A DNA stretch of 64,000 nt from an uncultured Candidatus Saccharibacteria bacterium. Lineage in GTDB: Bacteria > Patescibacteriota > Minisyncoccia > Phycocordibacterales > UBA918. The translations under genes and the position numbers were made by a program. The DNA lies in contig CAZSOS010000001.1 in NCBI GenBank assembly GCA_964608605.1, forward strand, positions 117,888 through 181,887. The letters are read 5' to 3'. This document shows positions 12,726 to 14,132 of this stretch, in pieces. Position 1 is the first letter of the stretch; the number at the start of each line of letters is the position of its first letter. The notes under the pieces are model-generated. The model was not told where the DNA came from, did no database searches, and saw only the letters and a program-made list of their open reading frames with translations.

Positions 12726-14132
12726 ATGAAAACAGGAACTATCACGCAGATCATCGGACCGGTCGTCGACGTTCATTTCGAAGGAGGAGTCCCAGACTTG
12801 CAGAACGCGCTTCAGGTAAAAAAGGAGGAAGGCGTCTTGACGCTTGAAGTAGCGCAACACGTGGGTCTTGATCGCGTCCGCGCCATCGCCATGGAGGACA
12901 CGCAAGGCCTCACTCGCGGCATGGAGGTGCAGGACACCGGCGCTCCGATCTCGGTTCCCGTGGGCGAAGACTCTCTCGGCCGCCTCTTCAACGTGTTGGG
13001 AGAGACCATCGATGGTAAGGAACCGGTTTATACCAGTCTGACTAGTATAAATACAAATACTAGTCAGACTGGTATAAAGAGACGGGCGATTCACCAGGAC
13101 GCCCCGGCCTTTTCCGAACAGTCGACCGCGACCGAGGTCTTCGAGACCGGCATCAAGTCGGTGGATCTGCTGGCGCCCTTCATCAAGGGCGGCAAGGTCG
13201 GTCTCTTCGGCGGTGCCGGAGTGGGTAAGACAGTGTTGATCCAGGAGCTCATCCACAACGTGGCTTCCGAGCACGGCGGTTACTCCGTCTTTGCCGGCGT
13301 CGGCGAGCGCGTGCGCGAGGGTAACGACCTTTATCACGAGATGAAGGACTCCGGCGTGCTCTCGAAGACCGCACTGGTCTTCGGTCAGATGAATGAAGTG
13401 CCGGGCGCTCGCGCCCGCGTAGGTCTTACTGGCCTCACCATGGCCGAGGCACTCCGTGACGAAGGTGACGGCAAGGACGTCCTGTTCTTCATGGATAACG
13501 TCTTCCGCTTTACCCAGGCCGGTCAGGAGGTGTCCTCGCTCTTGGGGCGCGTTTCTTCCGCCGTGGGCTATCAGCCGACCTTGGCCGAGGAGATGGGCAA
13601 GATGCAGGAGCGCATCACTTCGACCAAGCGCGGCTCCATCACCTCGGTGCAGGCGGTCTACGTGCCGGCTGACGACTTGACCGACCCGGCTCCGGCCACC
13701 ACCTTCTCGCACCTAGACTCCACCGTGGTGTTGTCACGCCAGCTGGCATCTCTCGGCATCTATCCGGCGATCGATCCGTTAGAGAGTAACTCGTCGGCTC
13801 TCGATCCACAGATCGTGGGTGAGGAACACTACCGCGTAGCGCAGGGTGTAAAGCAGACCTTGCAGCGCTATAAGGACCTTCAAGACATCATCGCGATTCT
13901 CGGCATCGAGGAACTTTCCGATACTGACAAACAGACCGTGTATCGCGCCCGCAAGATCCAGCGCTTCCTCTCCCAGCCGTTCTCGGTGGCCGAAGTCTTC
14001 ACTGGCGCTCCGGGCAAGTACGTGAAATTAGCCGATACCGTCCGCGCTTTTGGCGAGATCTTGGACGGCAAGCATGATGATAAGCCGGAGTCGGCCTTTT
14101 ATATGAAGGGCGGCATTGAAGAGGTCATATAG
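12726..14132 (+). CDS. atpD: F0F1 ATP synthase subunit beta with in-frame 17-aa palindromic-element insertion
   Basis: Walker [16 protein letters not shown]-region; insertion [17 protein letters not shown] between conserved EPV and RRAIH. Confidence 0.95.
13028..13078. repeat. Palindromic element type 1, copy B, in-frame within atpD
   Basis: TTTATACCAGTCTGACTAGTATAAATACAAATACTAGTCAGACTGGTATAAA. Confidence 0.85.

Follow-up and report, generated by a model that had tools for sequence, protein, structure and literature searches.

REPINs are doublets of REP sequences that form a hairpin and are mobilised by RAYT (Bertels and Rainey, 2011, PMC3116915; Bertels et al., 2017, PMC5581495). REP dimers have also been described inside genes. 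Di Nocera et al. (2013, PMC3733652) report GTAG/CGTC REP dimers that lie wholly within ORFs of known proteins and encode 20-30 aa, with a striking share of these intragenic dimers in uvrA, uvrB, uvrC and other repair genes; in their interpretation, such insertions fall in loops or linkers and are tolerated there. A further precedent is provided by the RPEs of Rickettsia (Ogata et al., 2000, as presented in PMC10969869 and PMC3733652), palindromes that sit in frame in housekeeping genes and are translated. As described in those two sources, RPEs measure about 100-150 bp and are confined to Rickettsia, and RPE-1 has no associated transposase.

Here, we describe an element of this general kind in Patescibacteria, present twice in the window, i.e., the whole 64-kb stretch of DNA that was analysed, once inside atpD and once inside uvrC. 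As in REPINs, it is made up of two inverted, imperfectly palindromic REP units with a less conserved spacer between them, which together form one long hairpin, and near-identical units, both singlets and doublets, flank a RAYT-like Y1 transposase gene in loci of other genomes. In contrast to Pseudomonas REPINs (71-110 bp between REP units), the element is 50-56 bp long; it also differs from REPINs in being conserved at the hairpin apex (AGTCWGACT), in having no GTAG tag and in its Patescibacteria host. Moreover, the copies in the window are intragenic rather than extragenic, whereas the related singlets are intergenic. A full-text literature search found no description of REP/RAYT in CPR bacteria.

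Results

The element within atpD

The source organism is a Patescibacteria/Paceibacterota (CPR) bacterium, to go by the names that a few close relatives of its AtpD bear. The host gene belongs to an atpA-atpG-atpD-atpC operon. The positions of the gene, of the element and its parts, and of the second copy in the window are as follows.

12726-14132, forward strand: host gene atpD (F1 beta, 468 aa), ORF intact, P-loop GGAGVGKT present
13027-13078, no strand assigned: whole palindromic element in atpD, a probable REPIN-like REP doublet, with 22-nt perfect arms and an 8-nt loop
13029-13049, forward strand: left REP unit of the atpD element, TATACCAGTCTGACTAGTATA, a near-palindrome with core AGTCTGACT and one C.A mismatch
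13050-13055, no strand assigned: spacer AATACA between the REP units of the atpD element
13056-13076, reverse strand: right REP unit of the atpD element, AATACTAGTCAGACTGGTATA, an inverted copy of the left unit
2312-2367, no strand assigned: second doublet copy, in uvrC (ORF 1896-3293, forward strand), with REP units at 2313-2333 and 2346-2366

The element within atpD is 52 nt long (TTTATACCAGTCTGACTAGTAT-AAATACAA-ATACTAGTCAGACTGGTATAAA). The string quoted in a preliminary description of this DNA is indeed present and in frame, but starts at 13027, one base before the 13028 given there. The two arms (13027-13048 and 13057-13078) are 22 nt each and 100% complementary, with 8 nt between them, and no match to the arms occurred in 100 dinucleotide-preserving shuffles of the 64-kb window. 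The single other copy in the window is that inside uvrC. The atpD hairpin is predicted at -22.1 kcal/mol as ssDNA and at -36.6 kcal/mol as RNA, with a z of about -10. The 21-nt unit falls within the range of about 20-40 nt for imperfectly palindromic REP units. When it is compared with its reverse complement, 3 of the 21 positions differ, the C.A mismatch pair accounting for two of them and the central base for one. The element has a GC of 0.29, as against 0.60 for the remainder of atpD and 0.56 for that of uvrC. Neither GTAG nor CGTC, nor the complement of either, is present in the 21-nt unit or its immediate flanks.

In either orientation, one of the three phases of the element is free of stop codons, and it is in this phase that both the atpD and the uvrC copies are read (YTSLTSI...NTSQTGI). 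The atpD copy encodes the 16 residues Y102-I117, which are rich in Ser, Thr and Asn and fall between GKEPV and RRAIHQ. Strong selection on frame-preserving copies, which was also proposed there, is plausible; however, there are two copies only, and a stop-free phase in an element so short and AT-rich is not improbable by chance, the estimate being about 0.26 per phase.

The same reading phase bears on whether the insert is present in the mature protein at all. Ribosomes might skip it by translational bypassing, of which T4 gene 60 and the mitochondrial 'byps' are examples, or it might be excised from the mRNA. There are known cases of short mobile inserts being bypassed, and a strong hairpin does lie within the coding sequence here. 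Bypassing would, however, need neither a length that is a multiple of three nor the sole stop-free phase, and both copies have both. In addition, matched codons for take-off and landing are missing, the take-off position is not followed by a stop codon, and no Rfam RNA family was found at the site. We consider absence of the insert from the protein highly improbable.

Absence of the insert from relatives of AtpD

Conservation of the insert in other beta subunits was looked for and was absent in all 119 of the closest AtpD homologs (86-91% identity); nor was any insertion in this loop found among other homologs. The site is likewise empty in the syntenic locus L010 (GCA_002422025.1) and in L019, which has 83% nucleotide identity and a similar GC, and the closest solved F1-beta, 2qe7_D, lacks the 13 residues in a residue-by-residue alignment. 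This distribution bears out the initial proposal of a hairpin-forming mobile element family.

Between GKE and (K/R)RxIHQ, AtpD relatives have 6 residues, rarely 7, as against 19 in the window. The net gain is thus 13 codons, rather than the 17 first reported. Just PV and K are left of the native 6-residue loop, with about 3 ancestral loop codons missing. Since a net gain of 13 codons goes with a larger element, either each insertion was accompanied or followed by the loss of a few native codons, or the loops were shorter to begin with. A parse in which the insertion follows GGT/GTT and precedes ATAA fits both the atpD and the uvrC copies, though, with two copies and relatives that are 75-83% identical, not uniquely.

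Judging from the alignment, the insert most likely forms part of the variable loop that lies between the N-terminal barrel of F1-beta and its nucleotide-binding domain. This placement leans partly on general knowledge of F1, beside the alignment to solved structures. An AF2 model of AtpD (57 close homologs) had a mean pLDDT of 50 and was not used for placing the loop.

The copy within uvrC

The arms of the uvrC copy, at first described as identical to those of the atpD copy, agree with them at 21 of 22 bases and differ at one. The central loop does differ between the two copies, as had been noted, the central part being 6 nt longer in uvrC. Correspondingly, the REP units are 12 nt apart in uvrC and 6 nt apart in atpD, and the spacer sequences differ. 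Read in the same phase as the atpD copy, the uvrC copy is YTSLTSIRNNVNTSQTGI, and its hairpin is predicted at -23 kcal/mol as ssDNA and at -38.7 kcal/mol as RNA (z about -10). The UvrC of L010 is without the insert; the net gain amounts to 12 aa for an element of about 19 codons, and 5-7 native codons are missing at the insertion.

A second palindromic insertion is found in uvrC at window 2527-2608. It has perfect 22-nt arms (ACCCCCACACCAACTTTTCCGT and ACGGAAAAGTTGGTGTGGGGGT) with 38 nt between them, including an inner palindrome (CAGTCTTCAAAGAAGACTG), corresponds to an insertion of roughly 30 aa when compared with the UvrC of L010, and occurs as a single copy within the window. Because this insert is unrelated to the REP doublet at 2312-2367, uvrC carries two different palindromic inserts.

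Related units and the transposase genes that they flank

A metagenome scan identified TATACTAGTC[A/T]GACTAGTATA on eight contigs, four of which came from one sample. On L003, units of the form TATACTAGT[T/C]AGACTAGTATA, which share 19-20 of 21 bases with the window arm, lie immediately on both sides of a 232-aa ORF. Three more contigs from the metagenome of L003 carry one related 21-mer each. The related single units on L002, L004, L005, L007 and L009 are intergenic, as are those on the three contigs. We also surveyed the flanks of homologous transposase genes in 20-kb loci. All five of these genes (in L012, L014, L016, L017 and L018) are flanked by palindromes, and in four of the five the core is AGTCWGACT. 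The units at the transposase genes are listed below.

L003, 2134 and 2863: 21-mer copies flanking the 232-aa ORF at 2163-2861
L003, 1358: third 21-mer copy, 0.8 kb upstream of the ORF, intergenic
L012: doublets TATACACAAGTCTGACTTATGTACATAAGTCAGACTTGTGTATA on both sides of the transposase gene
L017: doublets of TAGAGCAGCCTGACTACTCTA on both sides of the transposase gene
L014: singlet units CACACTAGTCTGACTAGTGTG and CCCACTAGTCAGACTAGTGGG flanking the transposase gene
L016: singlet units of the form CCCTTAGTCTGACTAAGGG, two per side of the transposase gene
L018: singlet units TAAACTAGTCAGACTAGTTTA flanking the transposase gene

With L003 included, the apex AGTCWGACT is kept in five of the six loci (L003, L012, L014, L016 and L018), and the outer stem varies but stays complementary. 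The doublets of L012 and L017 share the architecture of the window element, including the C.A mismatches within each arm.

These associations bear on three other explanations of the element. One holds that it is a minimal MITE- or RPE-like element with no link to RAYT, whose arms would be either the TIRs of a deleted IS served in trans by a DDE-type transposase, or an in-frame footprint left after imprecise IS excision. The 22-nt arms are formally TIRs, the two copies differ in the internal segment alone, as with independent internal deletions, and imprecise repair would account for the native codons missing at both sites; a hallmark of Rickettsia RPEs is, moreover, their insertion in frame (PMC10969869). 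Of the traits by which MITEs are recognised (TIRs, a TSD and a length of 70-300 bp), however, the element has the inverted arms, with no target-site duplication or flanking direct repeat evident at either copy, and its 50-56 bp are far under both the MITE range and the roughly 100-150 bp of RPEs. Each arm is itself palindromic, with a core that matches Y1 transposase flanks at five of six loci, and no IS with these ends was found in scans of the window, of representative genomes, of viral contigs or of metagenomes. An origin of this kind is, in our view, unlikely.

According to another explanation, which we regard as very unlikely, the element is a functional site: each arm would be bound as an operator by a dimeric protein, with the doublet serving as a regulatory or roadblock site within the gene, or the mRNA duplex would be a processing site (e.g., for RNase III) tuning atpD and uvrC. 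The dyad symmetry of each arm is operator-like, related single 21-mers are intergenic and adjoin gene starts, and the RNA hairpin is as stable as stated above. Against this, there is no obvious reason for co-regulation of atpD and uvrC, the element is absent from every one of the closest AtpD relatives, no promoter or terminator consensus was found at the atpD site, and both the singlets and the doublets lie specifically on the two sides of a transposase gene.

It appears extremely improbable that the element is an artefact of assembly or amplification, whether derived from an adapter or linker or formed as a chimeric inverted repeat. Perfect palindromes can come from library linkers or MDA chimeras, and the source genome is missing from the other collections scanned. 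The two copies nevertheless have different spacers and are in frame with perfectly collinear coding flanks, and the 21-mer family occurs in independent metagenomes, where it adjoins the transposase gene. None of the rival explanations matches the transposase association as well as a REP doublet.

The doublets of the three independent families lie at L012:9946-9990 and 10694-10737, at L017 about 9520-9580 and 10305-10360, and at the atpD site of the window. In all three, the small hairpin of each individual arm is interrupted by a C.A mismatch or two (G.T in the partner arm) and the pairing of arm to arm is perfect, so that it is the long arm-to-arm hairpin that is the perfect one; the singlet units at other RAYT-like genes are perfect palindromes. 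The arm-internal mismatches may favour the long hairpin during folding, or they may serve to tell the strands apart. On the Patescibacteria contig L017 (9615-11851), the RAYT-like gene and its flanking doublets are located immediately upstream of atpD. The AtpD encoded there (482 aa) was considered as a carrier of the insert and rejected, as its loop has no insert and its extra residues are near the N-terminus.

The doublet pattern was not found in representative genomes or viral contigs, nor was the degenerate 21-mer found in viral contigs. The sole match of the 21-mer in representative genomes (TATACCAGTCTGACTGGTATA, L001:6224-6244, in a Rickettsiales hemE) aligns to ordinary HemE residues, without any insertion, and was dismissed as a chance match. 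A tblastx comparison found no genes common to the REP-bearing metagenome contigs and the window.

The associated transposase

The 232-aa ORF of L003 (P0121) matches Pfam Y1_Tnp (PF01797) with 32.8 bits, the cut-off being 23. Y1_Tnp is the IS200-like HUH tyrosine transposase family. P0121 has 601 homologs, the few named ones being annotated as Patescibacteria transposases or 'RayT', and the residues N83, H84, H86, Y144, K148 and N149, which belong to the HUH (NHxH) and Tyr/KN motifs, do not vary among 120 sequences. The best NCBIfam family is REP_Tyr_transpos at 29-34 bits, which is below its equivalog cut-off of 80; IS200 scores 17 bits. In a Foldseek search of the PDB, the AF2 model of the transposase (pLDDT 92.7) has as its top match 4er8_A, the complex of E. 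coli TnpA-REP with a REP hairpin (205 columns aligned at an E of 4.7e-6, with a TM-score, normalised by target length, of 0.63), with the TnpA structures of ISDra2 and IS608 following at an E of about 3e-5, a small margin behind. A PDB sequence search with the transposase profile yielded just a non-significant ISDra2 match. Because the NCBIfam score is below the cut-off and the IS200/IS608/ISDra2 structures are close behind, this clade, as judged from family scores and a predicted fold, may be termed RAYT-like, not certified RAYT. In the 64-kb window, no RAYT-like gene was found by tblastn or with a profile HMM of 120 homologs (best E 8.5).

Other features of the window

The gene at the atpC position, directly after atpD (window 14254-14496), encodes merely 80 aa. 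Its counterparts in L010, L011, L017 and L019 are likewise short (80-92 aa), and such proteins of relatives have just an ATP-synt_DE_N domain where Pfam matches are recorded. In this lineage, epsilon may lack its helical C-terminal domain. The atp operon is followed directly by an ORF of 2299 aa (window 14571-21470) with many GNVGIGTTTP/SGNVGIGT repeats, presumably encoding a giant surface protein.

Perfect GC-rich hairpins with loops of 0-3 nt occur at window 7800-7840, 22051-22085, 25237-25277, 35331-35372 and 47900-47942. Those at 7800-7840, 22051-22085 and 35331-35372 have A-runs and T-runs on either side (e.g., AAAAAGCGGCGGGGCC-GGC-GGCCCCGCCGCTTTTT) and look like bidirectional intrinsic terminators. 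Imperfect AT-rich palindromes with motifs such as TTTGA(A/G)ATTT and AAATTTCAAA were noted at window 51156-51239, 10045-10105, 11685-11785 and 27862-27906, of which the second is at the atpH-atpA junction and the third at the atpA-atpG junction. They may represent a lineage-specific intergenic motif.

Discussion

The element in atpD and uvrC is probably a non-autonomous, REPIN-like REP doublet that belongs to a family tied to a RAYT-like Y1/HUH clade of Patescibacteria. We also think it likely that a RAYT-like enzyme, working on a folded single strand, mobilised the doublet, which then landed twice in coding DNA. The observations behind this reading are the palindrome, the identity between the two copies, the absence of the insert in relatives, an architecture also seen in the doublets on either side of RAYT-like genes, and the fold of the associated transposase, which is RAYT-like.

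The RAYT-like transposase, which would be encoded elsewhere in the genome, would recognise the folded REP or doublet hairpin on ssDNA, probably at the replication fork, cut it and re-join it elsewhere, and two such events would have placed copies in atpD and uvrC. Both insertions would have survived with a length that is a multiple of three and with the sole stop-free phase in use. In F1-beta, the AT-rich palindrome would thereby be translated as a hydrophilic, Ser/Thr/Asn-rich peptide of 16 residues in the variable loop, at the surface, with about 3 native loop codons lost at or after the insertion and a net gain of 13 aa. We believe that the AtpD insert is most likely a neutral passenger sequence. 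As a side effect, the predicted 22-bp mRNA duplex may alter translation or mRNA stability, and a secondary effect of the hairpin on the mRNA is compatible with a REP doublet.

Several findings count against the REPIN reading. Two copies are known, both of them intragenic, whereas REPs are extragenic by definition, and both in a window without a RAYT-like gene. Native codons are missing at both sites (~3 in atpD and 5-7 in uvrC), unlike in a clean peel-and-paste insertion. The unit is without a GTAG/CGTC tag, and the transposase clade falls below the NCBIfam RAYT cut-off. REPs are, moreover, characterised by many dispersed copies, and the two seen here were counted in a 64-kb window of a 331,920-bp contig. 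We know of no direct in vivo demonstration of RAYT-driven REPIN transposition, even in model systems.

With regard to the intragenic dimers of Di Nocera et al., the uvrC copy fits the preference for uvr genes set out in the accessible part of PMC3733652, and atpD is absent among the targets mentioned in that part. The window family differs from those dimers in being without GTAG/CGTC, in belonging to another phylum and in contributing an insert of 16-18 aa. It resembles the RPEs in being palindromic and in frame, but is set apart from them by its size (52 bp) and by its Patescibacteria lineage. The fold of the associated transposase is shared with IS200/IS605 and PATEs (Y1 HUH, ssDNA hairpins, no target-site duplication). 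However, IS200/IS605 ends are two different subterminal hairpins around the transposase gene, whereas the units described here are identical, self-complementary and dispersed alone; and, unlike IS200/IS605 TnpA, the associated transposase measures about 230 aa and has TnpA-REP as its nearest structural match. Intragenic REP dimers, including those in uvr genes, and Rickettsia RPEs are already known; what is new is the phylum, the REP family and atpD as a target.

A broader proposal, which we hold to be doubtful, is that a family of miniature REPINs, about 50 bp long and with an AGTCWGACT apex, persists mainly inside the coding sequence of an extremely gene-dense CPR lineage, where its stop-free phase would supply a harmless Ser/Thr-rich loop in either orientation. 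If this were true, core proteins such as F1-beta and UvrC would repeatedly acquire loop insertions from REP/RAYT systems. In addition, regulatory processing might take place at the perfect 22-bp mRNA duplexes.

As a probable REP doublet, the element would extend REP/RAYT-type selfish DNA to Patescibacteria (CPR) and define a REP family that is compact and combines a conserved apex of the hairpin with stems that covary. The six RAYT/REP loci, with their different stems, would offer a convenient natural series in which hairpin recognition by Y1 transposases could be studied. In the annotation of CPR MAGs, such inserts could be mistaken for frameshifts, introns or assembly errors. Finally, the catalytic subunit of ATP synthase would join the proteins that tolerate translated palindromic inserts.
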